Shown: in pieces, positions 16,120 through 49,991 of the stretch
How the letters are laid out: each line of letters starts with the position of its first letter
How positions within the stretch are numbered: position 1 is the stretch's first letter
Origin: Amphiscolops sp. MND2022
Lineage: Eukaryota
DNA length: 64,000 bases
Assembly: GCA_964187785.1 (NCBI GenBank)
Contig: OZ076409.1
Location: forward strand, 33,172,001 to 33,236,000
Reading direction: 5' to 3'
Program-made: the position numbers and the translations under genes
Notes under the pieces: generated by a model
Databases searched by the model: none
Told to the model about the DNA's origin: nothing
The model's input: only the letters and a program-made list of their open reading frames with translations

Positions 16120-16169
16120 ATAGTTGTCAATTCTTTTGTAATCAATTCTCTTAGGTTCAGCTATTTTGA

Positions 16170-16380: not shown

Positions 16381-16570
16381 GAGTTCACTTTTCAGCGCAC
16401 ACAGCTTTGTAGGGTTCGACCACGGTGGTTCAACAGCTGTCGTTCACTGTACACGTTCACTTGTTCGCCCAGTGCTTCTCTGGCTGTGTAGCAATCAGAA
16501 GATCATCCAGTTGTCCGCTCAATTGATTATGTGCGCCCCAAAACTGATGATGTCCGCCCAATCGATGATG

Positions 16571-16587
16571 TCCGGGTCGGCGGTCCA
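16571..16587 (-). promoter_or_regulatory. BEL primer-binding site, tRNA-Tyr-like
   Basis: Minus-strand TGGACCGCCGACCCGGA, 2 nt inside the 5' LTR, resembles the tRNA-Tyr complement TGGTCCTTCGAGCCGGA (4 mismatches). Confidence 0.65.
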
Positions 16588-16589
16588 AA

Positions 16590-17432
16590 TGTAACGGCTG
16601 CTTGATCCCTTCACCAGACCAAACTTTACGCCGCCCTGAATTCGGTGCTCGGCACTGCGGATCGTTACCGAACACTGCTTGCTTCTTAGATTAAAAGGAC
16701 TGTATCTTGACTAAGTGGGATCCGATGATCCTGAATTGCACTTCTTCCTTGTCTCTTAACACGTCCAACTCTCCACAAGTTGAGAGTAACTAACTTAGTC
16801 GCCCTAAGTCTTTGGCGAAAAGTCGAAAAGAGGTGAAGAAATGAATTGAGAATTGAAATGGTCCTAAGATCCAACTTGAATACAGCTTTCCAATCAATTT
16901 GTGCTTCTCTAGTTATGGTATACATATCGTTTACAATTCTACAGTAAATATAAGTCAAAACATGAAGTATAAATAAATGACATTTAAGTGAATTTTTAAA
17001 GTTATTGGTTATGTAAACAAACCATAGTGTGGGTATAACATGTTGGTTAGGTGGGCTCTAAAGCATGTTTACACAATGTAAATATCATTGATTTCAACAG
17101 AGTTACATTCTAATGTGGGTAAAAAACAAAGTTTACATTTTTGGTTCAATGACCTTGAACACCACACATGTGAGGGGTAAAGGGGGTTATAATGGATGAA
17201 TGACCTTGAAACTTCGCCGGTGCGTTTGTGTTAGGTACTTGCGTATGTGTGCCAAGTTGCATGTCTCTAGGGTTAGTAGTTGTCGAGAAAATCCATTTGG
17301 GGGGGTTTCCATTTTTGTCACACTTGATGTTTCTTCAATATCTCTTCTAAGTTTCTAAGAGTTTAAGTTCTTGTTTCTCAACCAATATGTTCCAAATCAA
17401 CTTTCTTTGCCTGCGGATGACTGGCGCCAACA
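16590..17432 (-). repeat. BEL/Pao 5' LTR
   Basis: Direct repeat of 9122-9970, followed by the TSD AGTTT. Confidence 0.95.
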
Positions 17433-22521: not shown

Positions 22522-23224
22522 TCATGCAGTGTTGGTTTTAAATAACTAGGACTTGTAATCCCGGGAGACACTTTTTCTTGAGTCACAATCAGTTCGTTGA
22601 TACCCAATCGAATAAAACTCTGTTTGCAAGCCTGAGAACTTGATTTAAGTTCTTACCTCTTGCAATAATCTCTTATGCCTTCTACTAGACGTCAGAAAGC
22701 GAAAGCTCGAAAATCTAGAGAAATGGACACACTGTCCGATATAGATAAATTGGACGTGATGCTAGGAGATGGGGGTAGTAATCCTATCGAAAAAGAGTTA
22801 GCTGATGCTATTAAACAACCTTCAGTGTAAGGAGATACTGAGACTAACGCGCATCTTAGAGACCAATATGCAAGTTTCACTTTTGAAAACAATCCCCCCA
22901 GACAAAGTGATGTTAGACAATCCTTTGAGACTTTTTCAAATTGATTTAATCTCAGATTATCTCAAGAGATGGACTCAATGATGTCTATGATGCATAGCCA
23001 AATAAATAGAGCCATTGACACTGCTATAGCTGAGAGATTTATTCCTGAGATCCAAAACATTTTGAGCTCGATGTCCTCTTCAGGGAACAGGGACACTGAG
23101 GCCACTGTGTCACCAAATAGTCAGAAAAGTAAGGAATGTTCATCCGGGTCAAAATCGAAGTTTACAAAAAAGGACTCACGGTCCGTGTCTGATTAGAGAA
23201 ACACCACAGGCCGTGGTTATTACA
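22522..23224 (+). repeat. Gypsy-1 5' LTR, truncated by the gap
   Basis: Matches 36349-37051 at a constant offset of 13827. Confidence 0.9.
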
Positions 23225-24362
23225 TGTTGACAGGAGCTACCGACACCCAACAGCAAATTCCCGAATTTCTGACTGGACCAATCCACTCAATCCCGAATTT
23301 GGAGAGGCAACAATCCAACCACGTTGTTTCCCTGGACACGACTGTGCCAGCCCCAGAACCAGAGGTACCTGATATTCCACAGGACCCATTGAACAGATTG
23401 GCCGACGTTTTGGTCAATTTGCAGAACAAACGCCAATCGATGACCATCAGACCAGTTCAAACCACACCAATGACATTTGACGGAAAGAGCGAGAAATTCG
23501 AGCTTTTCGAGGATTTGTTTCACACGATGATCAAAACGCAACCAGCTTTGACAGAACAGATGAAAACAAACCATTTTCACTCGCTGCTACGCAAGGGGGC
23601 ATTACAGACATTCAGGAACATAAACTCCATCAACCGCCAAACTTTAGAGGACGTGCTGGTCATATTCCGGAGGATGTACGTCCACCGGAATCCCAAGCCA
23701 CGGCCAAACATAAGAGGCATATGCTTACGTTTTATGATACTACAATGAAATTGCCGGAGTTCTTAGAAGAACTCAACCAAAGGGCAGAAAAAGCCTTCGG
23801 TGAAAATGCGAAAAGCATGATTGGCAGCTTGTTGTACGCAAAACTGCCTCCAAAGGTGAAGCGATCAGTCAACATGGCCCGTTTGGAGAATGGAGCATTT
23901 GAAGAAATAGTTGCGCATCTCGAGAGAGAACTAGAACGTAATGCATTGGAGGAATCAGACGACTTGCCAATGGCCACAATAGCCTCGGCGTCCTCTAAAA
24001 CCAGCAACCTACTGTCCAATGGCATTAACACCAATAAGAACGCACAATGTTCCTATTGCAAAGCAACAGGCCACTTTCACAAAAGCTGCCCTAAACTCAT
24101 GAAGAAGAACGAAATGGAGGAAAAAGATGGTAAGAAACCACAGCGTCCAACGTACCCACCGTGTGACACATGTGGGAAAAAGAATAACCAAACTGAGAGA
24201 TGCTAACAAGGCGCTGGCGCTCACCTGCGACCCAAGATGACACAGGCACAAAACAAGGACACCAATTCCTCAAATTCTGAAGAAAAGCCTATACGAAGCA
24301 AGGATTCAGAAACCGCTAGTTCAAGCCAAACCAACTCCAAAAACTCTGACTCAAAAAACTAA
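22675..24362 (+). pseudogene. gag: Gypsy-1 gag, starting inside the LTR
   Basis: MPSTRRQKAK.. (ATG 22675) is in frame with ORFs 22969 and 23224; FDGKSEKFELFEDLF capsid-like motif; knuckles CSYCKATGHFHKSC and CDTCGKKNNQTERC; in-frame stops and a frameshift. Confidence 0.85.
24353..24362 (+). promoter_or_regulatory. -1 ribosomal frameshift site A AAA AAC followed by the gag TAA
   Basis: Heptamer is phased to gag (frame of ORF 23721); ORF 24365 lies in the -1 frame. Confidence 0.75.
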
Positions 24363-24364
24363 TT

Positions 24365-27300
24365 TTGCCACGGCTCCAAATACATGACTATATGTCGGTT
24401 CGACAATACGTCATATCAAATCCTCCAAGTATTACCTTTCGCCACTATATCAAGGAAACCAATGGCACCCCGTCCGTTGTCTGGCAGCAACAGATAGAAA
24501 ACGCCTTAAGCAAAACCTATAAAGAAGTACATAGCGATCGCCCAGACCGATACTATGACTTTGACTACACTAAAGACATTGAGACACAATTCCGCCCCTT
24601 ATCATTAGTCAAGGACTACAACCCCCACTACATTGACCCTGAGTACGGAAGAGACCTGTATTGGGATGATGAAATTTACGATAAACCAAAATTACAAATT
24701 CGATGTGACGACTATCCTCCATCAGACGATGAGGACAATCCGGAGCCAGATAATAGCAAACTATCTCGGGCCCTCATTGAGCTTTGGCAGCTAAACACAG
24801 AAGCAATTTCAGAAAAAAACAGAAGCAACTCAACAGCAAGAAGACCATGAAGGCCAACAAAGCCTCTTAGATGAATCAACCTTCTTGCACATTTTAGTGG
24901 AAAAGGAGACAGAACCATGATATATTCTCCTTTCCATCAACCTTGGACTCAAATTCAAAAGGCGGATGCTATACTTCCCAATGGATTTCGGAGAACTGAC
25001 ATTGGACGTCCTAATCGAGACTGGGCCTACTCCAGTGCAATACCAGAAGCAGACCTCCGGAAAATAAGGCTACCAGCGCCTCAGTCCATAGCAAAAGAGG
25101 GACCTGCCTCATCATTTCAAATAATGGTCGCTAATGGAGATATAGAAACACCGAAGAAAACCGTTGAATTAAAATTTGAAGTATGGGACATTGAGTTCAA
25201 TGAAATCTTCATAGTAATGGAAAAACTATCCAGCCCCATAACTGGATTATTCTTCTTGCAAACAAACCACACTGTCGTAGATATGCGCCAAAAAATACTA
25301 AATTTCCTGATGTTTTCTTGATGCAATTAAAAACGGCTGACCACAAGTTTTCAAACGTCATGGAACCCATCCTCAGCCCCAAATGTTATTATTCCGCCAA
25401 ATGACCACACAGTTATACTCATTCCGTCCCAAACTTAAGTAGAAAATGCGGTCACCGGCATATTACAACCCAGTGATCTACTGAATGATGGAAATGACGT
25501 AACCTTGAATGAAGGGACTACGAGGATCCACGTCAACAATTTCACTGAGCAAACCTTCAAACTCCAAAAAGGATGGCACATTGCAAACTTCTCAGTGACG
25601 ACCCCCGAGCAGATGAAACACGTCAGCCCAATAGACCCAGTCTCCACCTGGCATATACTCAACGAAAATGAAGCAGATGCTATATATTACATTAGCAGCC
25701 TTCTTAAAGAGAACAGAAACAATGACCATTACGAACAATATTGGTTTCCAACACACGAAAACCCCGGGAATGAACCGTCTCATACGCCAATTCAGAAAAT
25801 AATTTTAGGAGAACTGAGGAAATTACAAGAAGCCGAAAGACTCAATCCGCAAGAAGACGCAGAATCTCGTCAGAAATTCCTCAAAAAATTCGACTGGAAA
25901 GACTCAATGTTACAACAGAATGAGATAAAACAAATAGAAGCTCTCTTGGTGGAATTCCTTGATATATTTGCCCGCCATAGGTTTGATATCGGCATGAATG
26001 AGGAGTTAACGATCAAATTGACACCGAAAAACGTCTCGCCCGCCTACAGCCAGAGCTTGCCAACGCCAGTCAACTTGAAAAATGACCTTTTGGTGGAATT
26101 TGCATTACTGCACCAATATGGTACCATCACGACATTACCATTCTCCAAGTATGCCAATCCCATTTTCGCGCAAAAGAAGTCCAACGGGAAGTTACGATTA
26201 CTAGTCGACCTTAGAAAGATCAATAATTTAATCTCTGATGATTACATTAGTAATAACCACCCAGTAAGCACACTGATTGATGCTGCTCAGCACATGGCAG
26301 GCAGGAAACTATTTTGCAAACTTGATTGTTCGCAGGGTTACCACTGTCTCCCAATGGTGGACCTGAGGTCCATAGAGAGGTTGGACTTCAAATTCACCAG
26401 CACAACATTTGCCTTCAGGAGACTAGCACAAGGACTCAGCAGAGCCCTATCGGCCTTCTCTAGTTTCATGAGAGAATATCTCGACCGCGTCATTAAAGCG
26501 GATCCATGTGCTCAAAACGTGGATGACATTGGCATTGCAGCCAATGATGCCGATCACCGTATCAGGAACTTGAGAACAACATTCGAGTGCATTAGGCCGG
26601 ATTAAAATTGACAATGCACAAGTGCCACTTCGGCGCGACCGAAATCGACTTCCTAGGAAGGACAATCACCCCTGTAGCTGTCAAACCGCAAAAAGAGAGA
26701 ATCACCAACTTCCTAGAGAGAACAAAATTCCCAAAGTCCAAACAGGCCTTACAACGTTACCTTGGCTCTCTCTATTTTTACAAAAATTACCTTCCAAGGG
26801 TTATGCGATACTCAATGAAGACGATCCAAATCAGAAGTGCGCTTCTGTCAAAAAATCCTTTGCGCCAATTGCATATGGTTCGAAAACTTTGACTCCTTCC
26901 CAATTAAAGATGTCAATATACGCCAAAGAATTCATAGCTATATATTACGCCTTTAAAGAATTTGGTCATATATTCTGGGGAACACCCAAGCTAGTAATTA
27001 TTCTTACAGATAACAAATCGGTCACGAGGTTCTTCCAGACCAATACAATAGCACCGCCACTCTGGAATTTGTCACTCAGTTGAGGTTTATAATAGCTCAC
27101 ATTCCAGGCAAAAACAATACAGCGGCGGACTACCTGTCACGTATGGAAATGGATCCCACAGAAAAGTTGGTCCTTAAAATACCAGCAGATGTTGAATCTC
27201 AGTCCATTGAGGTAAATGTCCAATCAGCCGGCGTGTCTGAACAGACTTGGGAGCGGAGGAGGCAATCTAAAACTGGACTCAAGGTCTCCGAGACCGTCAT

Positions 27301-29159
27301 TCAAAGTGAAGCCATTTCAGAAAAAAACGTAGATGAAAACACCAACTTCACCCAAAAATTGCGCAGAACGAACCAAATACTGTTGGAACAATCTAAGGAT
27401 CAGGTTTTGCTCCAATTGTAAGCAAAAATTCAAAAGGAGGAACTTTCTGAAGAATTCCTTCAACATGGCTTTTGATATAAACATTATCTGAACAATTTAG
27501 ACCGCACAATCCTCAAGGACGAAATTCTGACGCGACAATACTATTATAACGCAGGACAAGTCATTCACCACCAAATGTTATTGCCGAAACAATTATTGAA
27601 AGAGCTACTGCTGGCAATACATGGCACGGCCCATCGATATCCGGGCATCTCTAAAATGCTACAGGAAATCCGCCAGAAGTATTACTACCCGGGGAGTGCA
27701 AAACATGTCAAAAACGAGTAGCAGGCTGTGAAACATGTGCCAAGGGCAGGCATGTTCCAAACAATGTAGTTACACCTGAATTACTAAATTTGCCTGAAGG
27801 GGACCTCGGCCCAGAAGATGCCATGCTGATCGACTTACTCCCAATTTTACCTACCATTGGTGGATACCAAACAGTAATGACGGCCATTGATGTTTTTTTG
27901 AGATACTTATTTGACTACCCACTAACTGAGGCGACAGCCGCCAATGTGGTCAAGGTGATATCATGACGAAACACTTTTACTTACCGACGACTCTCATCAC
28001 GGACAAGGAGTCGGCATTCACATCGACCATCGTAGTAATTCAAATTTTGGGCATAACACTCAAATGCGCAACTACAAAACACCCGCAAACGATTGGCAAA
28101 TTAGAAAGGACGCACGCCTTTCCTCAAAACTAATTTGAAGATGGCCTCAGGGGAATACTTGCCACTAGCTGTCCTTAATTACAATACTACGTATCACTCT
28201 AGCATTGGTTGGGCCAAAGTTTCCAATGGGCCAAATCCCTATAACGTACTAGATCACAAAGTAGGAAACAATCCTAACAAAAACTTTCTACCATCAAAAG
28301 AGTTTGCGAAGTAGTACAAAACAGAACACGAATCCTCATAGATCAAACCAAAGAAAACATAATGCAGTCGTACTTGAAGTACAAAGACTATTACAACCCG
28401 AAGGCCAAAGCTGCTCCACTTAAAGAAAAGACTATTGCTTTATTCTACAGCCTAAAGCGGACAGCCAAGCATCAAAAATTCCGTTTAGAGATATATAGAT
28501 GGATTGGCCCTTATATCGTTCAGGAAAAACTGTCCAATTGTAATTACAATTACATTGTGCGTCGATTAATTACAAACAAAACGCAAATTCTACATCGAAT
28601 TAGATTAAAGAAACTCGTGTCGAACACGCCCTTAGAGGACGATTACTCTAGCGAAAAATTACAGCCTGACGAAGAGATAGGAATACCGCAAGACGACTAG
28701 TATACTATTTCATGAGCGGTAGACTTCGACTACGAGTTATTTGAAACGCGAAAAGATAACTGGCCAGACACGGCCACACGTCTGCCGAATGACGCCGCGA
28801 GCGGTGGAGTGGACTATTACGTCATCGAAGATGAACGCTGCAGCGCGGATGAACATGAACAACGCAGCTGCGAGCTAGCGAATGAAAGTGACGTCAACGA
28901 GGATGAAAGGAAGCCGAGACCGGCCAACAGCCGAGACGCGACGTCCCCGCTAAATGAATCGCATAGTGAAACAGAAAATGAAAATGACGTCACTAATGAA
29001 TTAGAAAATACGGAAATTGCTTCAAATGGAGGCGCAGATATTACCGTGCCCGGAATATCGGAAAATGAAAAAAATGAAGAAAATTCTAGTCCTAGAGGAG
29101 GGAAATATATCCTTCAACCTAACCCCAACCCCATCTTTTCTGATGAACACAGATACTAG
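24365..29159 (+). pseudogene. pol: Gypsy-1 pol (PR, RT, partly deleted RNase H, integrase)
   Basis: LDVLIETG protease remnant; GKLRLLVDLRKIN, KLDCSQGYH, QNVDDIGI (RT); IYAKEFIAIY, TDNKS, NTAADYLSR (RH); HG..PG..IRQKYYYP, CETC, WIGPY (IN). Confidence 0.92.
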
Positions 29160-29382
29160 CCAGACATCTAAATTGGTGTCCCGATTGTCACGTGGACTAA
29201 CTGATCATTTTTACTTGGGACTACACTGACAAAGAAATTTAGATATGAAATAAACACAACAAAACAGACTCAGTGGCGTACCAATAAAGCCACGGAAGTA
29301 CAACAATAAATAGAACAAATTCAGATCAAGTTTACGATAAATACAGAAACACAAATAGAGCACAAATGTACACTATGTACAT

Positions 29383-32300
29383 TTAGGATTTAGATGTGGA
29401 TTGCTCAAGAACTTGTGAATTAGAACCCTCCTTTGTCGGTTCTGTAGACTCAAAAGCTACCTTCCGCTTCCCTTTCCCAGGAGATCCTTTCCGACGACTG
29501 CAAGTAACAGGCGAGGTAGAACAAGAGGCGGAACGACTAGAAGACGCTGACTTGGATTTCTGCGTGAGAGATTTGTGCTTTTGGCAAAGAGTCTTATAGA
29601 AGTCAGCCAGCCCGAATACATCGACATCACGAGTCCATGGATCACCATCCACCTTGCCCGTATGAAATTCCTGCTCTATCTCTCGGAGTTTGCTCAGCGA
29701 ATCAACCTTTGTACAGACGGATATGGAGTCAAGAACTCGTGCCAGATAAAATTGGGCAGGCAAACGTACATCCCCCAACTACAGCTAGGTCTCTGAATGT
29801 CGACATCATGGAATGGAATGAAAGGGAGCAGAGGGATGTTCACAGTAAGGCACATGCAACTCTATTGGAAAAGTCGATGAAGGTGAACTCGGTGGCGAAA
29901 TTCGGACATTGCTGACAGTAAATCAACCATGTCAGAAAACCCATTGGGCGAATTCTTTAGAGCATGGTAAGTTTAACGAAAATGTCCAACAAACTCTAGA
30001 TACTCGTCCCGACAGTCGTTTTCGGGGGACCCTTCGAACCAGCCGCGAAGACTAAAACTCTGGTACAAGGCTGTGAAGCAAAAGCTGGCCAAAGCATGCC
30101 ATTCCCCTCACGATGTTAGCATTCAGACTGATGTGGTTCAAGAAGTTCTCAAGAAGGTTAACGAGATGGCTTCTAGCCTTCGCGACGAATTTCTCGTTCA
30201 CGTCATCAACTAATTCAGCCATATTAGGATTGGGGCTCCCGGTCACTGTTATCGCGCTTCACCTTAGCTGTGGAAGCCGCATCAAGATCCTGCTTCAGAT
30301 GTAATCGGGTAAGGAAATTGCTAGAAGACAATTGTCGAAGCTCGGCAGTCCGGAGTACGGGTAACTGTGTCCAGTCAGTCTCTTTTGACAGATGCTTCGG
30401 AAGTAACGACCGGTAGCAGAGTTTCCTGATGAAGCTGTTTAGTTGGCCAAAGGTAAAAAAACCCGGAGTCTTTGTGCCCGGCCAAGCTCCTTTCGAAACA
30501 GACGTTGTCTAAACAGTGATATCAATAATAAAACTTTGACCTACGAACCTTTGGACAAATTAGATACTCAAGATACCTTAGGATTCTAAACGAGAGAACT
30601 GAGAAAAGGATACTTACAATCGTATACAATCCGCCCATAAATTTCCAGTTTGACCAAGAAGAAGTCATTGCTGATAATCTGCCACTCCAGACTCTGGAAG
30701 AAAACAGAACCCGTCAATAATGTTTGTGCCATGAGACAACTGGGACCAAGGCAGTATTTACACCTGTTATTGACCTAAACTTCAACCTTATTTTTAACCC
30801 CAATAATTTCATAGCTGGGTGCAATTCTCATGATGTGATCCAGAAAAGGCTACCAGTTCGTATTGATTTCTGAGCATTTAGCGGGGATGGAACAGAGTCG
30901 CAAATTACAATTGCTAATGGCCTAAAAGCAATGCCATGGTATAGACACAGGAACCTCAATCAAGCCCTGTTGCTAAAAAAAAGAATCTTACTTCGGTGAA
31001 GCCAGAGCCTTGGCATACCAGGGCTCGTCAAGATATTGTGCCAGGTACACCAGCAAATATTCGAGCTGCGTATAAAAGTCAATACGCCCAAACACACTCC
31101 CTTTTCGTTTTTGCATTAACTTATGCATATAAAAGACCTGGTAACGGAAGGGGTACTCAATGCCCTTCTTCAACAAAGCGGACTTCTCAACTGTTTGGAG
31201 GACGTCGAAGGTACAGCCTGACATGCAGACGATTTGAGGCACAGGGACAGGTGGGACAAGAGTTGTGCAATAACGAGTAGCTGGTTGCGGTCGGGATCAG
31301 AAGCCAAGCTGTACTGCATGAGTTGAGGTATTCTGACTTCCAGTACCGTAAAGAGGCAATCTCCTTGCTTCCTTGTGGCTCGAATTGAATAGAGTACAAC
31401 CCGGAATCGTTGACGGTTTGAGCCACATCTTCAATACCACGCAAGAAGACGTGATGAAAGATAGCCTGAAACAACCAATCTCACTTGAAAGCACGTGTCT
31501 AGCAAGTAAATTACTATGTGACCTCCCCTATCTCACTCAAAACCCTAGTAAGAACGAAGCAAGGTACATACCGTGAGCGTGGTGGAACTTAAATCAAGAT
31601 TCCCAAACAGGTCCTGGTGTTTGGCGAAGTTGCCCGTGTCAGTCCAAAGTCTTTGGAAGATTGTAAGATCGCCAAAGTAAGGGACAAATCGACCAATCAG
31701 AGAAACTTGAGTCCCTAAACGGACATCTTCAGGGTTCGTCAATCCTTTTGCACTGGTCATATACTCGTCATAGAAGGGGTAACGGGGGGCAATAACGACA
31801 AGGGGCGCTGATTCGAATGGGGGGCTTCTCCTTTTCCAGCTCGAACATGGAAAATTTGTCCCCGTCCTTCCCTCTGACAGCAAGAACAGTGGTGCCTGTG
31901 ATTTTATCAAGTTTTCCGAAGTGTTCGTACGGCCAACGTTGGTCTTTCCTGAGGTGGTTCTCATACTGGTAATGGCGGACGATCACTCGTGCTCCTTTAG
32001 AGAAAAAAGATACATTGGTTTGGCGTATCTGGCAGTAGTACTTGTGCTTATTGTGCACAGGGTCCAGCGGGCCAGTAACGAACACCCTCGTCCATTGAAT
32101 CCCCTTGAAGTAAGCGGGCTTCATCACCTTGCCCGGCCGGTTTAGCGTCTTCTTCCTTTTCCGAGGTGGTCCGAGATTGACTTGTTGGTGCTTAGTTTGA
32201 GGACATATGGTACACAGATGTTCGTAATCGCCCTCGCTTTATCCAGGACTAGGGACAGTAGTTTGTCCTGAGAATGAGCCTCTGCCTGTTCCTCTCGTTG

Positions 32301-33512
32301 CGGCACACAATCTTGCAGGCAGGTGTACTGGAGTCGGATTCGACTTCTTGGCTCATAGACGCCCCTCCTCTTTCCTCATCGGTCGCGTAGGCCCCACTGG
32401 TGTTGTCATCAGTCGTGTAGCCCTCACTGTCTGATTCTCCCTCAGAACTAGCAGTCATGCCCCTGTTGTGAGTAGGCCCTTTAATTAGAGCCTTCCTTAG
32501 CTGTCCTGCAGTTTGTCTTTTCCCTCCGTGGACTGCCTGTAGAACCAGTGAACGCAAGGAGTGCAATGAAGACTTAACTGGTTCGTCAGAAACAGTTTTC
32601 AAAATGGCATGGATCTGTGGCTCGCTGAATGCCACCGTTGTTTTCCCCCCTGGGAAGCTCAATAGGAGTGTTTTGTGCAAAATACTTGCGAAGCATGATT
32701 CGGCCGTTGGCAGACAATTCTGTGGGTAAAGCGGGTTCTTTGTGGGGATGGGAACCCGGAGGCTTACTGGTGCCCTGACTCATTGTTTCCTGAGGCTTAT
32801 CTGGGGCAGGAAGAGAATCGAATCCCACAAAACTTGAAGTAGGCCTGTCGGTCAATCCGTTTGCTCTAGCACTGTCGTATACGTCTTCTATTTCACTTGC
32901 GTCCGTTTCAAAATAACTTTTCTGCTGCTCCTCTGGTAAGTCAAACGTACTTGGGTCAAACAGCCTGAAAGTCCCTTGTTGCTCGGTATCAATTTTCTGG
33001 ATTTTGGGCTGGGTAGTAGTCAAGGCCTCAGATTTCGAGAATTTGTTAGTGGAAGATTCACGCTCTCCCTACTGGAAACTCTCGTTTGGTGCTTATAAAA
33101 AGGTGATGTCCAAGCTGGAATCTTAGTGGGCCAAGGTACGCAATGTATAATCCGCGAACGTGGAGAGACTCTCTTCGGTGTTGCCACTACTGGAGGACAA
33201 GTTGGACAAAGGACGGGCTTTTGGATGTAATACGGTCCTGTTCTCTTCAACCAGTTGGAGATTATCACTGTGCTGGCGACCCGACAAATCCTGCGCAAGA
33301 AGGGCAGGGTCAGTAATTTGTGGTTCATTTGCTTCAATCTGTCGTTCAGACGTCTTGTCTAAGCAAAAAGAAAAGAAATCAAGCGGAAGTCTTCCTGAAT
33401 ATAAATCCATTACCGCGTTTAAAAATCTTCCGGAAGTAGATAATTTTGAACTCAAGTGAATACTCGAGATATTGGACAGGAAGTACGTGAATGAAATGAG
33501 AGTTCTGATCAA
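29383..33512 (-). pseudogene. Antisense multi-exon cargo gene of Gypsy-1: zinc-finger, hAT-transposase-like protein (decayed)
   Basis: Chain of minus-strand ORFs; predicted GT-AG introns 31466-31571, 30922-30991, 30509-30617; W..C-x2-(C>R)..H-x5-H finger near 31960-32100; 5' end uncertain. Confidence 0.6.
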
Positions 33513-34325
33513 ACCTCGAATTATTTCAACATTAAAATAAAACTGAAAAGAAGCTTGAAGCCCACTGATCTGTTTGATTGTGGCCCTCGGGAAGATCGTG
33601 GGTTGAGTCCGCCATGAGCGCTGATGGATTAGAAATGGGTGCGTCCTTCTTCAAACGTGAACGTAAATTGGAGCTGGCTGGGGCTGCCAAGAAAAGGATT
33701 AGAAGTCAATTGACAAGAATGATCCGAGAGAATTCTCACAGACCGGGGTGAATGGACACTGAGTCCCGAGATGGGGATGATGCAGAAGATGATTGCAATT
33801 AGTTATAATACACCAACTAAACAACTGACTATTGATTAAATACTGGCAAAGACTAAAGACTAGATAAAACAGAGGAAGAAGGTAATGAAGGAATTGAGTA
33901 TAAAGAATTGGATAGTTAAATTGGCGATTTGACAAGATGTTGGTATTGGAGTTCATGGCTATACGGATTGGTGTCAAAATTTTTGTTTTATACAATTACG
34001 ACATTATATGGATAGAGTCTGCCAGCGATATCTACATTGTTTCATTTATTTCGAAAACTTTGTTTTTTACGAGTTATTTCATGATTTTATCATTGTTTTA
34101 ATTATTTTCAAGGTCATTTTATATTGTTCTTTATATGGATATTCAGTCTTGGGAAGCCATCCTAAATCGAGAGAAAACTTACTGCTCTCCTATTGGCTAA
34201 CCAGATTTGAGGTGGACGGCGTGGCCTCCAGCCATATCTTCATCCACTTGGAACTCTCAAGTACCTAATGAGTGTTAATAAACACTTGAAGTAACACTCC
34301 TAACTTGGAAGTGCTAGCATAACTG

Positions 34326-35394
34326 ATGATAGTCAACAAGGCCGTTTTCGGCAATTACAAAGCGACTCAGTGGCTTGATGAAAGAGTTCGAGAGGAGAAT
34401 AAGGTTATTGAGAATTTACCTGCCGGGAAATGCAAAAACCCGGGAAAAGCGAAACGAAAATTCCTGTGGTCTGATGAAAGAAAAATGTCATTCTCTCAGT
34501 TTCATTCTCGAAAATCAGCTGCTCTCCTTGAATTTAAAATTGAGACGCAACTTCCCTTCCCTTCCAAAAGAGCGAAGAATATATTTAAAAGAAGACACGA
34601 AATGGATAAATTTCTCTCAAGACAACAGGACGCGGAAACCTGAACGAATGTACCCGGAAGACTTTCAAGGAGCTGCCCCAGGAGGCGGGATAATCTACAT
34701 ATCAAGTGATGAAGACGAGGCTATGGAATGTAAGAGTGTTTCTTCCATCACTGATTTCCTACCCTCCTCGGAGGACGAGTCGGAAAAAGTGGCCATGATG
34801 GCCCTATATGTTGAAACACAAATGCCTACGCCAATTCCCCATTCCTGCCGCTCCTTCTACTGCCTCAGATAAATCCAACGAGCCCAAAAGACCAAATATG
34901 CTTCCTTTTCCAACATTCGATCAAACCTATTTTAGTCTGGGGAGAGGCAATGGGCCCCTGAAGGCGGACGACAGGGTTAAACCAAACCACCCGATAAATC
35001 TACCCCGCAACCTAATCCTGCAGGTAGATAACCACTATCTCCTCCAGATGCAGACAAAGGGCAATTTTAACCTGAATCGACATCTAGCAGCGGTTATTCG
35101 TCAGATGCCCCAACAGTGGTTTCAGTGGCGAACCGCTTCAACGACTTGGAGATCGAAGGGAATACAATTCAAGCTACTTATTCCGACTGTGTAATCTGCG
35201 GCAAGCCGACCGAACAAATACGTGAGGAAGCTGTCAACGATTACATTGATGAGACAGTTGCTGTTGTAGAAACACTAGCAGAAACTCAAGCGAGGATTAG
35301 GGCGTTCCTGGACGGAATGACTGCCGGGACTTTTCTTCTTATTCCGGGGGAGTGTCGCGGGCTGCCGCCTGCAATGCGAATTTCTACACAATAA
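34326..35394 (+). pseudogene. Sense-strand accessory ORF(s) of Gypsy-1, unknown function
   Basis: Overlapping plus-strand ORFs with an acidic tract (IYISSDEDE) and a CVICGK motif followed by a helical segment. Confidence 0.45.
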
Positions 35395-36169
35395 GCTACA
35401 GCTGTCATCGAGACTTTCCCGGTATCTCTGAATTAAAACTAATTTCCTCAAAACTTTAAAATTATCACCTAGAATTCAGTATTGTTATGCCAAATTATGA
35501 TGTTGCTTAGTATCAAAACTCGGACCACATGTAAATTTTTTTCCACTTAGTCGATTTTTTTATGTTAGATTGGTATTTTGTTGTTTCACACATGTAAAAG
35601 TGCAATATGTAATTAGTTGTGATAGTAGTTGGACACCAAGGCGTACAGGCAAAGGAAACGTGTTCAAATGTTCCTTTGCTTGTCGCCTTGGACCAGTAGT
35701 CCACGAGATTATAAACCAATCACAGCGCAGTCTGCTTGTTGAACAACGCTGTTTGGTACAGCATTTATTCATCTTTTCGGTGCTATGGCAGCGGGACTAC
35801 CAGTCCACTTTGAAATGCAATATGATATGCAGAGATGTACTTGGTGAATTTGTACAGCCCTTAAGGCCTATAGTAAATTGCTGTTACAGATGCACATATT
35901 TCTTAGTCGAAGTTCGCACCTGAAACTATGATAAACTCACAGTCCTTTTCCCCCTTTTCTCTAAGCTTTCCCAAATGAGATGGTGTTTCCATAAATAGTC
36001 CATATCATGAAGTGCCATGGATTATGGCCCTTGTGCCTATTTACTATTTCTCTTCACTTGCTGTACATGTAACCAATAAGAGTTGTTTCACACGTAATGT
36101 TTTTTAACGTGAACCAATCAAACGGCCTACAAGGCTACGTAAACACCACACGTTGACGCTGTTGTTTTT

Positions 36170-36183
36170 TATATATATGAATA

Positions 36184-36219
<36 letters not shown>
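36170..36219. repeat. (TA)n microsatellite
   Basis: Directly visible. Confidence 0.95.
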
Positions 36220-36222
<3 letters not shown>

Positions 36223-36268
36223 TCATTGCGTCACGTTGCTGCTATTTTTAGAACTACGTCATTGTGTT

Positions 36269-37051
36269 TGTAAGGACACGTAGTCCTTTGCAGCTATTTT
36301 TAGAACTCCTGTTCTGAAATTAGATTGATGGCACTCTATTTTTGGAAGTCATGCAGTGTTGGTTTTAAATAACTGGGACTTGTAATCCCGGGAGACACTT
36401 TTTCTTGAGTCACAATCAGTTCGTTGATACCCAATCGAATAAAACTCTGTTTGCAAGCCTGAGAACTTGATTTAAATTCTTACCTCTTGCAATAATCTCT
36501 TATGCCTTCTACTAGACGTCAGAAAGCGAAAGCTCGAAAATCTAGAGAAATGGACACATTGTCCGATATAGATAAATTGGACGTGATGCTAGGAGATGGG
36601 GGTAGTAATCCTATCGAAAAAGAGTTAGCTGATGCTATTAAACAACCATCAGTGTAAGGAGATACTGAGACTAACGCGCATCTTAGAGACCAATATGCAA
36701 GTTTCACTTTTGAAAACAATCCCCCCAGACAAAGTGATGTTAGACAATCCTTTGAGACTTTTTCAAATGGATTTAATCTCAGATTATCTCAAGAGATGGA
36801 CTCAATGATGTCTATGATGCATAGCCAAATAAATAGAGCCATTAACACTGCTATAGCTGAGAGATTTATTCCTGAGATCCAAAACATTCTGAGCTCGATG
36901 TCCTCTTCAGGGAACAGGGACACTGAGGCCAGTGTGTCACCAAATAGTCAGAAAAGTAAGGAATGTTCATCCGGGTCCAAATCGAAATTTACAAAAAAGG
37001 ACTCATGGTCCGTGTGTGATTTGAGAGACACCAGAGGCCGTGGTCATTACA
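36269..37051 (+). repeat. Gypsy-1 3' LTR, left boundary uncertain
   Basis: Homology to the 5' LTR is provable from 36349; TGTAAGGAC at 36269 is an imperfect inverse of the terminal GTCATTACA, but no PPT precedes it, so the LTR may start further left. Confidence 0.75.
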
Positions 37052-39677: not shown

Positions 39678-41916
39678 TGTCACGACGCACACTCGGTCGG
39701 TGTTTTACTCGCCACGAAGGAATACACAAATTTGCCAAGGACTCGGCCATGGGAGGAACTATTAAAACGTAAGACCATTGAATTCTAATTACAGTACAGT
39801 TAGATAAATAGTGAGAGATAATTCCGGATAATAAAAAGTAACGTAATGACGACGTAATATTCCGCAAGACAATTTCGGATATAACAAAACTTCCGATCTA
39901 TCAATTTTCCGCGTGACCATTCTTACTTGCGTTTTTATTTTCTGAAATTCTCATACTGATCTAAATATTAAAACATTGAAAAAATTAACCATAGAAAATA
40001 GATTCTTCTTTTTTCCACCCTGAAAAGAAACATTAGGAACAATATTTAGTTCCGTGATCCTAATTGAATTGATACAATCTAAAATGAAAGAAATATACAA
40101 AAAACCCCAGGAATTGTTTTCTCAGTACAATTCAGGTGTCAGAATTAGTCACAACGTTATGGCAATGTCACTCAATGAGGTTCGCTGGCGATGTTTCTAT
40201 ATTTTTACGAGCCAGGACTATAGAAATTCCTATAACTGAAAAAAATTCCGAGGGAAATCTCATAGCTGGTCCTAGAAATTCGCCCAAAAATCATCTCGAA
40301 AACCTTGACGAGATGAAGACGTCACTTAGGAAGGAGATCATGTCCATACGTTCTAAAATCCTTGCTGATAACCAAAAGGAGCCAATAGCGTTACCCCTCA
40401 GCGGAAGAACCATTCTATACCCCCTGTTTGGCAAACGAATAATATCGTTAGGTTGCCAATATTTTGAAGCTCAGAATAGATTGAACGATTTTGTGACGTC
40501 ACGGCGAAGCATCTTAGAATGAATACTGCTAGCACTTGACCATTCTGTTACGCCACACTGCTTGTCAGTTATGGCATATCTCAATACGCACGACACAGCT
40601 TCGTCACGTTTGAACGACGAGAATAGGAAAAAGGTGTTTCATCTGGCATTGACTAAGACGATTTTCGGTATTTTTGTATGATTTGTCATGAATAATATTG
40701 TTAGAGAAAGCTGTACTGTAAGGCAGGAAATAAAGTGATCTTAAATCCTTTTGTGTGCTGAATTTTCCTCTGTATCGTGATAAAATCGGATATGATGAAG
40801 TTCTTGGAATGATATTTTGGAGATTGCGTTCACCAAAAAGTATAATAGTACTGCAAAAATTTAATAATTTATCTTTATTTTATGAGTTATATTCAACCCT
40901 ATCTCATTATAGCTGCACGAAGCGACGTAAGGTCAACGTGATATTCTCAGATGAGATGTTTGAAACTACAATCGGTTTATTAAAACTACATTCAGTGAAA
41001 ATCGTTCCCTCGTTGCATTTTTATATTTGGGTTTTTTGTCACTATAAATCGTGTTAATTTGTACTATTGGAAGTTCAATCGCTTCCGAAGGATATGTTCA
41101 TGGAAGTGTCTCAACATTAAGTATGACTTTCGTCAAATCATGTATGGATGTTGAGTTTAGAATATGTATATCATAAACTCCTCAGCATCATTTTACCTCC
41201 ATACTTATATAACCTCAATCGCAAGAACAGTCCTTTTTTTCCGTCTGTTACGAATGGTTTTCAACAAAAACGACATGACATGACCCAACTAGAAATTTGG
41301 AAATCTGATTTCCGTACGCAGGACTGAAATGTTATGAATGAACTTAGACTTTTCATGAACAGACCTGATTTTTAGGATACTTAGGAACTTTTAGGTGAGG
41401 AACAAATGATGCTGGGGAGGTATAATCATTTAGATTCATGTAAAAGATTTCAGTTAAATGTTAGTTGTCCAACCTACGTATTCATCGTTTGAAAATCCTT
41501 AAATAAAATTTTTTCTTCGAAGACTCATATTTGCCGAAGACCTTCTCTTTCTAAAATGACAACCAGAAGCAAGAAAAGGAAAGCAGTTGAGGAACTAGTC
41601 TCTACGAATATGGAGACCCATATACCTGAAAATAATCCCGTGGAAAATCTCATCGCTGGTCCTAGCAAATAGCCCAAGTCCATATCAAAAACCGTGAGGA
41701 GATAAAGACGTCACGTAGGAAGGAGATCAAGTCCAATGGCCCTAAAGTCATTGCTGAGAACCAACAGGAGAAGTTAAAATTATCAAGACCCAAAATAATC
41801 CCTTAATATACAAAACAATGACTCTGAAACTGAAAAAGTTTTCCCTACAACTACTTCTACATCAGCCAAAACTAAAACAACTACATGAAAAAGTACACCG
41901 ATATCTAGTCTTAACA
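39678..41916 (+). repeat. Gypsy-2 5' LTR
   Basis: Colinear with 51000-53261 and visibly more diverged than the other LTR pairs; has a private insertion at 40215-40378. Confidence 0.88.
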
Positions 41917-43062
41917 TGGTGAAAGGAGTCATTAACTATTCCAGTAAAATCGCACGGAAGAAAACAACCTCACTCCCAGAGCCAACTAATCAAAGACCAA
42001 CCAACAACATCCGACTGCTGTTCGCACCCCAAACGCAAACTCTACCAACGTCCCACATGCTCCCAATGCCAAAAGCGCTCAAAGCGTCACTCTCCGTCTA
42101 CGATGGTAAGTCTGAACAATCTGAACTAATCGAAGACATGTTTCGCAACAATATCAAAATGTTTCCCCATCTCACAGAAATACAGAAAAAAGCTACCTTC
42201 ACTCACTACTCCCCGGACTTCATAACTGAATGCAATGAAGAACCCTCACAAGACTGGCAACGACGGTGGAACGTCTGAATGATCTTACGTACCAATGCAA
42301 GACATCACGAATGGATAACCGAATCGCTCCAGGGGCAACGCAGTCCAGGCGTACTGCGACCTAGAAGTTACCAAAAAGTATCATCTTGTGGAAATAATTA
42401 CGGCGTTCAGACGTCGTTTTGGTGACTTCCAATCCTCAGTCAAAGCAAGATGCAAATGGGATGCACTGCACTTTGACCCAAGCAAACAAACGTTACACGA
42501 GTTCCTAGAGTCTTTCCAAAAAACTGCCAAAGAAGCGTTCGGCTCAGGAGCACAAAAATTTATTGACAAGTGATCTACGCAAAAGAGCCGGACCACGTCA
42601 AAAAATCCTAAACCGAGCTTACCTCGAGGATAAACTGTACAACGACATGGTACTACACCTGGAAAGAGATTTGCGCCCTAACGGTCTCGGCGCCCCAGAT
42701 GAAACCATATTGGTACCTCTGAATGCTGTGGACGCAAATCACACGGAGCCGAAAAGTGAACAGGCTCAACGAGGCTACTGTTTCTACTGCGGCTGATATG
42801 GTCACTACAAAGGACAATGCTGTAAACTGAAAAAAAATATCGCTATCTTGGGACCAAAGCCAAAATTATGGAAGTCAACGACACCGACACGCAAAAACCC
42901 AAAGGTGATACATAAGAGTGGAAAAACTGTTAAAACGGAATACTGTTGAGACGGAGCAATTGCGGCAAATGACCCCAGAAAGAAGAGGAGGAAGTTTGCA
43001 ATTTTAACCAAAAAATTAACGAACAACCCCTACCCAACACTACAACTCAGCCAAAAAACTAA
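41556..43062 (+). pseudogene. gag: Gypsy-2 gag, starting inside the LTR
   Basis: MTTRSKKRKAVEE (ATG 41556); YDGKSEQSELIEDMF, ARCKWDALHFDPSKQTLHEFLE, YNDMVLHLERD, CFYCG.GH..QC; ends A AAA AAC TAA at 43053-43062. Confidence 0.8.
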
Positions 43063-46000
43063 AACCACCGGGCAAGTTTCGGGGAAAAGGTAAACACGAG
43101 GGATGACACGATTGAAAATCCCCCAAATCGCTACAAACTGAATGCAATGAAGAACCCTGCCAAGACTGGCAACGACGATGGAACGCCAGAATGATCTTAT
43201 GTAACAATGCAAGACACCACTATTGGATAACTGAATCGCTCGACACTTACGCGCCTTTGAAACGACCCTTGCCAGATTAAAAAAAAGACAGGATCTATGT
43301 TTACGACATGGACTACCGTTGCGATGCCTGGGACGAACCAGAAACCTACGACACGAAATCACTCTCAATCAAAAAAGTCTCAAACTAAACATTCTTGAAC
43401 ACCATCTGCATCGAAGATAAAACACGTTGGTCCCTAAAATCAAAGAAACAAACGGGTGATACCCCTCCTCTTCCATTAATACAAACCGCAATCGTCACTC
43501 AAACACCCACCAATGACAACGACACGACGAATTTACCAACACATCTACCCCATAACCTTGACGTAAAAAAGAATTCATCCAGTACAACAATGAGAACGAC
43601 TACATTTCATTAAAATCAGCAATCACTCGAATGCTTTTCCTTCCCCTGGACTTCCACAAGGTCAAAATTGAAGAACTAGCCTGCTCAGGTGCGTACGTCA
43701 ACGCCATCAGTGAAAGAGATGGGCAAAGTATACGACAACATGTACATCAGTGCATCATTCATGAAGCGCCACCTTCTCCCATCAAAGTTCAATATGCTAA
43801 CGCTGAACTCGAACAGCCCCTCGCAACGTACACCATGCATTTCCCAATTGGAGACTACAACTTCGAAGAAGCATTCCTAGTCATGGCAAAACGGCATACC
43901 CCATAATAAGACTATCATTTCTACGAAAGCACTCCAAAGTTCTCGACACAGCTCGAAGAACAATCGACTTCCCAAAGATACAAATCACCATGACACTCAT
44001 TGATGAAATGCAAAAATGCAACCCAAAACCCATTACGGTCATGACGGAAAGTCAGCACACCATTCCAGCGCAATCTACACGCAACATCCACGAGTCAATA
44101 TCTGTGAGCAATGACAACCGAATGAATGGGACAGTACAACCTCTGCCACAGTTTGACGAAAGCGAAAAACCTATAGTAGCCTCAGCAAAAACGCTTGCTC
44201 CACACAAATGACTGGCTATCAAAATAGCGAATACGGCCATTTTTCCCTATACGGTAACGCCAAAAACCAAATTGGCCGAACTACAAACCCTCGAACCCGA
44301 AGAAACGAAATCTATTCGAGAACTTATCAACAAACCATGACGACGTCGCAGCGTATGTCAATGCCCTTATGCGAGAACAACGCAATGAAGATAACGAAGA
44401 ACAATTCTGGTTCCCGACACTTGACAACCCTGGAACGGAATCAGAACACACGCCCACACAACAACAAAAACTCAGAGAAATGACAGAGCAAGAGAGCCTT
44501 TAAAATTAGACCCCAAAGAGACTGAAGAGTCCCGCACTAAATTGCTATCGTCGTTCAAATGGGACAACTCCCTAATCACGAGCGAGGATCGCGAAAATTT
44601 TGAGTCCATCATCGTAGAATTTAACGATATCTTCGCAAGACATCGATTAGACATCGGAATGAACACACAGTTCAAAGTCAGTCTTTTGCGAAAAGACGAC
44701 CAACCAGTCTACACCCAGAGTCTAACTGTGACTATAAACCTTAAAGACGACCTCGCGGTAGAACTGGCCCTCATGCACCGCTACAGCATTTCGACACTAC
44801 CCTTCTCGAAGTAAGCCAGCCCGAACTCCGTGCAACACAAACCCAACGGCAAACTGAAGTTGCTATTTGACCTGCGAAAAATCAACAACATCAACAATAA
44901 CCACCCAGTCAGCACGTTCTTAGATGCGGCGCAACACCTAGCAGGAAACGACTGTTCTGCAAACTCGACTGTTCTGCAAACTCGACTGGCCCCAAACCTA
45001 CCACGTCCTCCAAATGGCAGACCGCTGGTCAGTAGAACTCCTTGCTTTTAACTTTGCTAGTAGGGGACGTTTGCCTACCGCAGATTACTTCAGGGACTCA
45101 GCAGAGCTTTGTCAGCATTCTCAAGCTTCATACGATATTACCTCAAACCAGTCATCGAAGCAGACCAGTGCGCCCAATATGCAGACGTCATTGGGATCGC
45201 CGCCAACAACCCAGACCAACTCGTAAAAGACATCAGAGCAGTCTTCAAATGCATCTGCACCTAACAATTGAAAAATGCCACTTCGGAGTGACCCAACTCG
45301 AACTTCTTGGAGGAACCATCACGTTGGAAACTAATCAGTATGTATGAGTTTTCAAAAGCCGATGCCAGAATCAGCATCGCAGAAGAACTCGTCGACAATT
45401 TCAAAGAAATCAACGCAGGCCTTGCGCAAGCCTGTGGACTAGCACTCAGCCAACCCATCGTTGGAAAACAGTACGTACTCATGACGGAGGCAAGCTTCCG
45501 AGTATCTGGATACGCACTAATGATCGAAGAAAACGACGACAAAAAGCTGCTTTCTAAAAAAAATTTTATCACCAGTTGCCTTTGGACAACGCGTATTCTC
45601 CACGTCACAACTAAAAATTTCAATATATAGCAAAAAACATGCAGCGATAAATTATGCCTTCCTTGATATCAGCCATTTCTATTGGAAACCACGCTACCCA
45701 CTCTGCTACTAACAGAGAATAGATCAGTAACGAGACTTTTTCAAACAATACCCGAAACACCCACACTTTGGAAAGCCTGCGTCTATATACTACAAATCAA
45801 TTTTCACATTATGCACGTTGCAGGATCGCAAAATACCGCAGCAGATTTCTTCTCCAGACTAGAGCTAACGCATAAAAAAAACTCTAAACAAGAGACGATA
45901 TACTAACGTCACCAATAGAGGTGAACCTCCAATCGTCCGATTTCGCAGATGATGAACAGTTTTCTTCCATGCAAAAGAAAAAGAAGAGTCCGAACAAGAA

Positions 46001-47862: not shown

Positions 47863-48015
47863 ACAAATAAACTATCAACGCTTAGGTACAAACAAAATGA
47901 CAAGAAGCTAGTTTGGAGCGAAAAATATCACCCAATTCATGAGCACCAAAGTTCAACTTCAGCAAGTACTTTAATTTATGAACCACGTCAGGATCGAAGT
48001 TTATAGTCTGCTTTT

Positions 48016-49991
48016 TTAATCCTTCGGAGCAGCAGGCTGTTTAGAACCACGATTGCTGCTGGACTGGCGTCCTCTTTCTGCTGCCTCAGCCTGTTGTTTC
48101 TTCTGCTTCACCACCGCGCTCAGAGTACTGTCCACGTGCCTTTTAGAAGCGACCTTTCCACTACTACCAGCATCCACACCTTACGGAGCTTCGACCGATC
48201 TCAATAAAACGATTAGGTTTGTTGCTTTCTATATGGAAATTCTCGCAGGTTCTACGACGCTCCGCAATGAAGTTTACATAGAGTTCCATGTGCCACCGCA
48301 CAAACTCATTGTAATCTGCAGCTCAAAACCCCTTCCAAAGGCAAAAACCAGGTGTCACTAAAACTTGACCAGCATTGGCCTTGGCGGTAGCTTCCCGCAC
48401 AGCAACCCAAAATAGGAACTGTGAAGAACAATTAGTGCGCATATCCAGGGATCAAAACATACGATTGTACCAACAACAAACAATCATCGAAAACTTTGTG
48501 CTGCCACTCAATTCCATCGTCACAGCCGGGTGGACTTTCCAGGGTCTATCAATCAGCGAACAACATAGTTGGAACACTTTAAGAAGTCGGTGTCGGGCCT
48601 GAAAACCAAAATCGCGCATTAAGAAGTCGATAACGTCACCATTGTCGCTAGCAGACCGTCCAGAATCTACTTGCTGCCGCCGCTACTCTATCACGTAACT
48701 GGTATTTTCTTCAACAGATGCGTTATCCTCATCAACAGAATTAGCCCGACGCTTCCTCAGCAACGTACCCAAGTCGGAAAAGAGCCCAAACACAGAACTG
48801 ACGTCCCCCTTCAGTAATATTTCTGGGCAGAAACTCTAAAGGCCCCTCGAAACACCGGACGTAGCACAGGGTATTTCCAAGAACAAAACAATAAACCAGT
48901 CAGTAAAGACTTTACAACGAACTTGAAATTCTTGGACGTCACTCGTTTTCAAAGCGGGAATCTCTTTGCCGAAGTCATAGGTGACCAGGAAGGACAACAT
49001 ATCAACGGATGGAAGATGGCTACTTTCGCAGGGTCCATGTACTGCTCCCACTCGTGTACCGCTGGTAATGCGCTAACATGTCGGCTCTTCAAGAGTAAAC
49101 AATAAATGAAATTACACAGCTCTCCATAACTGCGAAAATCGTTCTCCGAACGTCCATGGCGATATTTCGTTAAATTGACCTGAACTGAAACCCAACGTCA
49201 TAAATACGACACACTACAAAACCTGACTAAGAAAACGATCCAAATACTTACCTGTATCTGCATCAACTGCAACAGGTCAAACCGATACAGTATGAGAGTA
49301 CTAGCAAAGATATACCAGTCAGTCCCACGTAACTGAAAACAGAAAATAACTAAATGACTGATGACAACTACTATAAAAAACCACGTTGATGACCAAAACT
49401 AACACTATTGACCATTGACGGGTCTTGAAGGCCGCTCCAGGCTTACAAAAGAGAAACACAAGACCCCATAAACACGACAAACAAGACAATTTCAATATAG
49501 CAATAATCCAACAAGCCCCCCTCAGCCTCCCCTACTTCACCTCAGCCCCCACACAATCTTTGTACCTTCCTCGTTTTATGAGAAGGGATCAGTCTCGCCT
49601 TCACTAGCCTTTTCAACGACAACATGCGAAATTGCGTCGGTAACTGAACTTGGGACCTATTGGACTGAAGGTTCGGTCACTGGACCGTCCAGCGCAGCAG
49701 AAGACGTATCACGAACGTCGGCTTCAGGAATGCAAGTAGCAGAAGCGTCAAGTTGAGTTACTGAAAATCAAAATCCGGTTCAAACACGTCAGTAAATCGT
49801 GTAAGACTAAAAGGGCTGATCACCCAGCAATATTCCAAGTACCCAAGGAAGTCAGAAAGATTTTACTAACCTTTCAACAGATTAAATTCGTTATCCGTGA
49901 GACGAACATCGCTTTCTGTCCAGGCAAAATTAAGTTCATTGCCACTAAGAAATCCGCCGGAAGCAAGGCGGGTTCCGATTTCATCGCCCAT
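48016..49991 (-). pseudogene. Antisense multi-exon cargo gene of Gypsy-2, unknown product (decayed)
   Basis: ATG 49991 (MGDEIG..); predicted introns 49761-49870 and 49180-49251; an open 81-nt exon 49252-49332; C-terminus ..KQPAAPKD-stop at 48016. Confidence 0.55.

Follow-up and report, generated by a model that had tools for sequence, protein, structure and literature searches.

The 64,000-nucleotide stretch analysed here (the window: positions 33,172,001 to 33,236,000 of contig OZ076409.1 from Amphiscolops sp. MND2022; all positions below are counted within it) contains a Ty3/Gypsy long terminal repeat (LTR) retrotransposon that carries a multi-intron gene; this gene is read from the minus strand and lies downstream of pol, ahead of the 3' LTR. 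The original prediction, that the element retains a gene with introns by holding it antisense, is supported by the fixed place of the gene in related elements, the conservation of its splice sites and the selection acting on its protein. Comparison with transposases of the same genome and of metagenomes suggests, in addition, that the gene likely descends from a captured cut-and-paste transposase of the hAT5/6 type.

Structure of the antisense gene

In the window, the antisense frame runs from a conserved ATG at 33410 to a TAA at 29383 and comprises five exons and four introns, all on the minus strand. Exon 1 (31572..33410) encodes a low-complexity stretch of about 420 residues, which includes an RKRRK motif, and, at ~32139-31572, the region of a CCHH (BED-like) finger. 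Intron 1 (31466..31571; 106 nt, GTATGT..TTTCAG, phase 0) separates it from exon 2 (30992..31465), the predicted counterpart of the RNase H-like core, a weak match in which the catalytic aspartates appear to be replaced. There follow intron 2 (30922..30991; 70 nt, GTAAGA..TTTTAG, phase 0), exon 3 (30787..30921; 135 nt), intron 3 (30697..30786, with a short deletion at the acceptor in this copy), exon 4 (30618..30696; 79 nt here) and intron 4 (30509..30617; 109 nt, GTAAGT..GTTTAG, phase 1). Exon 5 (29383..30508) encodes a helical region, which shares homology with hAT5/6-type transposases in their C-terminal half, and then a basic, Ser-rich tail. The splice pairs of introns 1, 2 and 4 lie where they had been predicted, and intron 3 (30786-~30697) had been overlooked, which brings the total from three to four. 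In the window copy, exons 1, 2, 3 and 5 are interrupted by in-phase stops or by shifts; in intact relatives, five coding exons and four introns yield a product of ~1,232 aa that starts at the conserved upstream ATG.

A DNA search of the same genome with the window segment returned at least 43 matches, from the best 40 of 412 candidates. The gene model was compared across 38 copies, namely 28 of the 30 loci of the genome search (the partial L006 and L012 were omitted) and 10 further copies. The splice donor GT of introns 1-4 is kept in 38, 36, 35 and 38 of these copies, respectively, and the acceptor AG in 37, 36, 36 and 37, a conservation beyond chance. Exon lengths are mostly kept (exon 2 is 486 nt in 29/38 copies, exon 3 is 135 nt and exon 4 is 82 nt in 36/38 each), and introns 1-4 vary in length (77-140, 64-75, 81-94 and 100-125 nt); across 10 subfamily representatives, exons are 66-74% identical, compared to 31-43% for intron interiors. 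The spliced frame predicted for the gene is open in 18 of the 38 copies; in these, from the second ATG on, no exon is out of phase or interrupted by a stop.

Junctions 2, 3 and 4 are fixed exactly because natural copies exist that precisely lack the respective introns: L131 is devoid of introns 2 and 4, L132 of intron 4, and L156 and L113 of intron 3. Three proteins in ENA also read across these junctions, P0021 across junction 3 and P0020 and P0058 across junction 4. For intron 1, the GT..AG ends recur in distant copies, but no copy without this intron was found. A 55-nt 5' intron preceding the second ATG was considered and ruled out, given that this stretch is 80% conserved, far above the intron interiors, and that the in-frame upstream ATG is kept.

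On its minus strand, the spacer upstream of the gene (33411..34650) has a CCAAT at about 34196 and TATA-like words at about 34137 and 34123. This pair, ~700-790 nt upstream of the antisense gene, is a candidate antisense promoter, a lead obtained without a shuffle control; its spacing is similar in copies L013, L018, C1_5 and L030 and not in two distant copies. Immediately after the antisense stop lies a palindrome, AAATGTAC..GTACATTT (29363-29384), which is conserved in the clade of the window element and was not seen in distant clades.

The carrier element

In the window copy of the carrier, gag, pol and the antisense frame have all decayed. Its 5' LTR is visible only in its 3' part (22522..23224, plus strand, 97.7% identical to 36349-37051), the remainder being lost at an assembly gap (a run of N just before 22522), whereas the 3' LTR (35353..37051, plus strand) has the ends TG..CA and follows a purine tract ending at 35352. 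The frameshifted gag (23197..24206, plus strand) is 86-90% identical to the gag of L013. In the intact relatives the gag frame starts within the LTR, several hundred bases into it, and continues through the primer-binding site, TGGTGACAGGAG, which is identical across all clades fetched (the corresponding stretch of the window is 23197-23260). The broken pieces of pol (24350..29159, plus strand, stop at 29159) match the Pfam families RVT_1, RT_RNaseH and Integrase_p58_C and, as in the relatives, are arranged in the Ty3/Gypsy order reverse transcriptase (RT) - RNase H - integrase; the RT is 84% identical to that of L013.

Among the ten relatives that were extended, nine are complete, with a length of 15.7-16 kb, LTR pairs that are 99.1-99.9% identical and 5-bp target duplications, and the tenth stops at a contig end. 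An unbroken pol frame of 1,705-1,718 codons is present in four of the nine complete relatives. Counted as lower bounds, the carrier family comprises hundreds of young copies in the 1.07-Gb genome. Homologues located ~14 kb apart at C11:10229270-10271169, C1:79169692-79185178 and C12:39856977-39886739 suggest tandem elements with a common LTR.

An additional sense open reading frame (ORF) of unassigned family, ORF3 (34651..35399, plus strand; broken in the window copy and 40% identical to the ORF of L018), enters the 3' LTR and lies head-to-head with the antisense gene. It spans ~210-360 codons, with an acidic ISSDEEE-like motif and a CxxC near the LTR edge, tracks the LTR type and is under purifying selection (w 0.15-0.17). 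ORF3 was matched in 20 of 20 distant copies of the same RT clade and was not detected by BLAST in a more distant clade (RT 66-80% identical).

Fixed position, selection and exchange

Within the element the antisense gene is a constant component, and it is subject to purifying selection. As predicted, it sits antisense behind Gypsy pol in every homologue for which the context was fetched. In the reciprocal direction, 20 elements were sampled at steps from 150 integrase matches (the best 150 of 10,412 candidates, hence close relatives), and all 20 have the three profile regions of the gene on the opposite strand; had the segment been a nested transposon, it was expected mostly outside Gypsy elements, with terminal inverted repeats (TIRs) and a target duplication of its own, which is not the pattern found. 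All 20 copies retrieved with two distant homologues as queries are likewise antisense behind an RT or integrase of the same clade, with exon 5 31-34% identical to that of L013 and RT 80-92% identical where present (17/20). The gene is also carried by 10 of 10 copies related to a second Gypsy element of the window, at ~20-28% identity and with RTs 66-80% identical. Altogether, 30 of 30 distant homologues (20-35% identity) occupy the same place, across clades whose RTs are 66-92% identical. A search of public data with the exon-5 profile identified 575 clusters, defined at 50% identity.

The second Gypsy element of the window itself (39678-53261, plus strand) is old, with LTRs ~77-82% identical and an RT 56% identical to that of L013. 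Its antisense gene is left as exon-5-like pieces, with a decayed exon-5 homologue at 48455..49197 (minus strand; profile E 6.7e-9 and 5e-4), and no finger match was obtained in this element.

The ratio of nonsynonymous to synonymous substitution rates (dN/dS), proposed earlier as a check on the gene, is 0.03-0.06 for the pair L013/L025 and 0.05-0.09 for C1_5/C4_75, the two pairs that are unsaturated, and indicates purifying selection. Between subfamilies synonymous sites are saturated (proportion of differing synonymous sites, pS, 0.76-0.89 versus 0.07-0.49 for nonsynonymous sites, pN). The antisense protein diverges far faster than the RT (30-54% versus 89-92% identity).

In trees of RT and exon 5 for 24 copies, three deep clades agree and the topologies within the clades differ; each alignment rejects the other tree in the approximately unbiased (AU) test, with p 1e-30 and 6e-36 (1,000 replicates, flagged as too few). 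Individual pairs of copies display the same discordance. L018 and C1_5 share 97-98% identity across gag, RT and integrase versus 65-72% in the antisense exons, and for L030 and C12_42 the corresponding values are 96-98% for the backbone and 66-74% for the antisense exons. Conversely, the antisense exons of L013 and L018 are 97-99% identical versus 82% for the LTR, and L013 and C4_75 share 95% in the LTR versus 65-69% in the antisense exons. Deeply diverged versions of the antisense gene have been exchanged between near-identical gag-pol backbones.

Relationship to hAT5/6-type transposases

The order of regions in the predicted protein is ~420 low-complexity residues with RKRRK, the CCHH finger, a mixed region (exons 2-3) and a helical region (exon 5). 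The finger residues C, C, H and H are present in 24 of 24 aligned relatives, and exon 5 of the relatives folds confidently as an all-helical domain (predicted local distance difference test, pLDDT, 87.9; an earlier fold from 12 sequences, with pLDDT 38, was not used).

Transposases of the putative donor type were picked by a hAT motif, which has 15 matches in the Amphiscolops genome and none in the reversed control; a second donor set, from metagenomes, consists of 80 loci out of 120 or more. A profile of exons 4-5 matched the motif-picked transposases with a best hmmsearch E of 1.1e-7, and HHalign gave 95.2% with E 2.7e-8 (E 0.86 for the reversed control), 96.1% with E 1.8e-9 in global mode and 90.3% with E 1.4e-6 over 231 columns, at ~16% identity to the donor type. 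This score is not circular because the local matches stop before the motif used for picking. The finger matches the donor profile weakly (E 0.032, template columns 41-77) and has an hmmsearch E of 8e-5 to a finger within a donor-type locus; the region of the first aspartate also matches weakly (E 0.014, template columns 206-243). Both weak matches precede the C-terminal match (columns 420-652), that is, the order is collinear. Thus, as judged from these profile comparisons, the C-terminal third of the protein is homologous to hAT5/6-type transposases, and the remainder resembles them weakly but collinearly.

Of the donor-type elements, 9 of the 10 copies from this genome and 5 of 8 from metagenomes end in CAGGG and are flanked by target duplications of 5-6 bp. 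In the accessible portion of one study, duplications of 5 and 6 bp are the defining feature of hAT5 and hAT6, which are placed in the Blackjack lineage (PMC12730594); the part of PMC3942097 at hand contains no definition of hAT6. With short TIRs, 5- or 6-bp duplications and the hAT order of motifs, the donor-type elements fit hAT5/hAT6 at the level of sequence. The genome also harbors young hAT5/6-type elements with internal deletions, which form one family (L217-L229; 0.76-1.9 kb, ~99% identical, with CAGGG termini).

The residues D, D, CxxH, RW and E are all present in the donor-type transposases. The antisense protein has E in the column of the first D in 42 of 48 sequences and S in that of the second D in 40 of 48, with D in neither column in any sequence, and the best column for the third E has E in 4 of 86; RW (by alignment) and the Cys of CxxH also appear to be replaced. 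The DDE triad, CxxH and RW thus all appear to be lost. No CAGGG-type hAT termini were found at the edges of the cassette in the seven copies scanned.

Other searches gave few leads. For the antisense protein, the Pfam family zf-BED was matched only at E 0.11, in 1 of 17 sequences, and PF04195 (Transposase_28) had no match in the antisense gene. Foldseek with the exon-5 model yielded nothing at E<=0.001 in PDB or BFVD (best VIA Z 6.1), and neither PDB sequence searches nor a word-indexed search of exon 5 against longer proteins gave a match. DUF4371 was not matched anywhere in the genome, and no related loci were detected in metagenome and viral contigs. In the ESM Atlas, exon 5 fell near Dimer_Tnp_hAT clusters (0.91) with a low recognition score, and exon 2 gave unrelated peptidase clusters.

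Possible function of the antisense protein

We give about an even chance to the interpretation, drawn from these comparisons, that a clade of ~16-kb Gypsy elements carries, antisense, a captured hAT5/6-type transposase that is dead for catalysis and probably serves in trans as a DNA-binding regulator, maintaining expression of the element family to which it belongs. Slightly more tentative is the full evolutionary scenario, in which the clade would have domesticated a cut-and-paste transposase before its deepest split and turned it into a disarmed, spliced, antisense-encoded and sequence-specific anti-silencing or activating factor, diverged types of which were traded between lineages.

Introns in the sense of the genomic RNA of an LTR element tend to be lost in reverse transcription, and antisense introns are not spliced from this RNA. 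The introns of the antisense gene would accordingly remain in the genomic RNA and survive reverse transcription because the gene is not spliced from that transcript; the gene would be expressed from its own promoter in the spacer, and the natural copies with exact intron losses lend indirect support to antisense transcription. The finger and the transposase scaffold would bind DNA, and the added 420-aa disordered N-terminus could recruit host factors, resulting in activation or relief from silencing. Exchange of versions would probably occur through template switching between co-packaged genomes, and the rare exact loss of introns would stem from recombination with spliced RNA.

The kept finger, the apparently dead core and the added disordered arm would together make up the anatomy of transposase-derived regulators. 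As described in the available part of a preprint, transposases activate their own copies sequence-specifically, and the regulator TnpA evolved from a transposase (bioRxiv 10.64898/2026.08.24.746577). We favor an activating or anti-silencing role because of this regulator-like anatomy and the precedent of transposases and TnpA.

Several observations weigh against this interpretation. With respect to origin, Pfam recognizes no hAT family in the antisense gene (0/121 exon-5 members) and, on the donor-type transposases themselves, nothing beyond one weak zf-BED match; the Ac-type hATs of this genome (45 loci) are not matched; the match of exons 2-3 is weak (global 14.6%, E 4e-4 versus 0.03 reversed); the assignment of the catalytic columns depends on the motif register of a weak alignment; and the picking of the donor set by a motif was not blind. 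With respect to function, 18 LTRs have no repeated motif in common beyond AT-rich words, and the cassette moves independently of the LTR type, which speaks against strict pairing with a cognate LTR.

The free exchange across LTR types would fit a target outside the LTR, as expected if the captured protein were instead an integration adaptor, the finger of which binds chromatin or DNA, tethers the integrase complex and steers insertions. The invariant finger is compatible with this role, as is the presence of the gene in all elements tested, which is expected for a step of the cycle, and the accessible part of one study describes accessory DNA-binding proteins of Tn7 that guide the transposase (PMC13547354). 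Nevertheless, integrases are 97-100% identical where the antisense proteins differ by 25-35%, with no sign of co-evolution, and the copies are spread over many chromosomes with varied flanks, so we consider an adaptor unlikely. Somewhat less probable still is a brake, which would repress its own or competing elements, including free hAT5/6 elements as a dominant-negative subunit, and limit damage to the host. The layout resembles that of HBZ of human T-cell leukemia virus 1 (HTLV-1), in the partial descriptions at hand a spliced minus-strand gene that antagonizes the viral activator; the head-to-head ORF3 could be such an activator, and donor-type hAT elements are present in this genome. Yet a trans-acting repressor would be prone to loss in copies that cheat, whereas 20 of 20 elements keep the gene, and the ~16% identity to the donor type is low for mixed complexes.

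The rapid divergence relative to RT and the reshuffling of old types onto new backbones could also reflect an arms race, with the protein antagonizing a host defence protein of a small-RNA or chromatin pathway by direct contact and DNA binding being secondary. This seems improbable to us, given that dN/dS is far below 1 in every pair (pairwise, not site-wise) and that reshuffling is also expected from neutral template switching. A retained nuclease or transposase activity of the protein, based on an altered active site, is very improbable: the glutamate conserved at the first-aspartate column and the retained full transposase length would suit an enzyme, but neither the second nor the third position holds a conserved acidic residue, and hAT termini are missing from the cassette edges in the copies scanned. 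The least credible possibility is that the gene belongs to a nested DNA transposon which is copied together with its carrier as a neutral passenger; transposase ancestry and the decay of the window copy are in line with it, but it is refuted by purifying selection and by the presence of the gene in 20 of 20 elements, as well as by conserved splice sites and a position fixed over deep divergence.

Comparison with known systems

Among plant Ty3/Gypsy elements, Retand, Grande and RIRE2 contain antisense ORFs (aORF-3R), many of which encode the 'Transposase 28' domain, PF04195 (PMC7264820, PMC11963269). As far as the available parts of these studies go, aORF-3R resembles the gene described here in being antisense between pol and the 3' LTR, clade-wide, linked to a domain named after a transposase and without an assigned role; it differs in being limited to plants, in that no intron is mentioned there and in the PF04195 domain, which is not matched here. 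The present gene has four introns, a product of 1,232 aa and a near full-length hAT-type scaffold with a finger. In the excerpted description, gene23 of the plant Grande element has its own promoter, whereas here a promoter is a candidate only. In fungi, brtn is an extra antisense gene of Boty/BcGypsy1 of Botrytis cinerea (PMC8365987, PMC4227169); it is likewise an additional antisense gene in a Gypsy element, but this element has a chromodomain, and the accessible text does not state a transposase origin.

Compared to hAT5/hAT6 as described in the part of PMC12730594 at hand, finger, putative core and helical C-terminal region follow in the same order, with the C-terminal third matching significantly; in contrast to these elements, the gene has no TIRs or target duplication of its own, appears to have lost DDE, CxxH and RW, possesses the extra 420-aa N-terminus and moves only within a retrotransposon. 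En/Spm TnpA, VANC, FAR1 and MUSTANG are, according to the same partially available preprint (bioRxiv 10.64898/2026.08.24.746577), transposase-derived, catalytically degenerate and sequence-specific regulators, and by analogy they are the likely working model for the antisense protein. These proteins serve the same DNA transposon or the host, whereas the beneficiary here would be a retrotransposon, a case never mentioned in the preprint as far as its available text goes. In the excerpts describing HTLV-1 HBZ, it is similarly a regulatory gene that is spliced, encoded on the minus strand and located in the 3' portion of an LTR element; however, it belongs to a retrovirus, encodes a small bZIP protein and has transcripts that start in the 3' LTR, and no homology is claimed. 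Bdelloid rotifers have LTR elements with foreign genes captured after pol as ORF3s (PMC5408684), another case of animal LTR elements with captured genes; those are of the env, DEDDy and GDSL types, and no intron or antisense ORF is mentioned in the accessible portion of that study.

No further antisense case is described in the available parts of PMC6431247 and PMC13524379. Within the open-access literature (subscription journals, Repbase Reports and supplements were outside the search), we found neither an animal Gypsy element with a multi-intron antisense gene nor an LTR element with a captured hAT transposase. The novelty originally suggested therefore stands for the animal multi-intron gene and has to be narrowed for extra antisense genes as such, which are known not only in plants but also, from brtn as partially described, in fungal Gypsy elements. 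Antisense accessory genes are a known kind; the traceable transposase origin and the animal case appear to be new.

Transposase domestication is usually told as a gain for the host, whereas here the beneficiary would likely be another transposon; if true, this would be domestication from transposon to transposon across the divide between class I and class II. The antisense accessory ORFs of LTR elements have long been puzzling and without recognizable ancestry, and here an ancestor can be traced; together with a defined finger and many natural types, this makes the function directly testable. The gene further illustrates how several introns can persist in a gene carried by a retroelement, and offers natural snapshots of exact intron loss.

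Other features of the window

The window also contains a BEL/Pao retrotransposon on the minus strand (9122-17432), whose LTRs are 94.5% identical and whose target duplication is AGTTT, and a GT-rich tandem repeat at 7376-7727.

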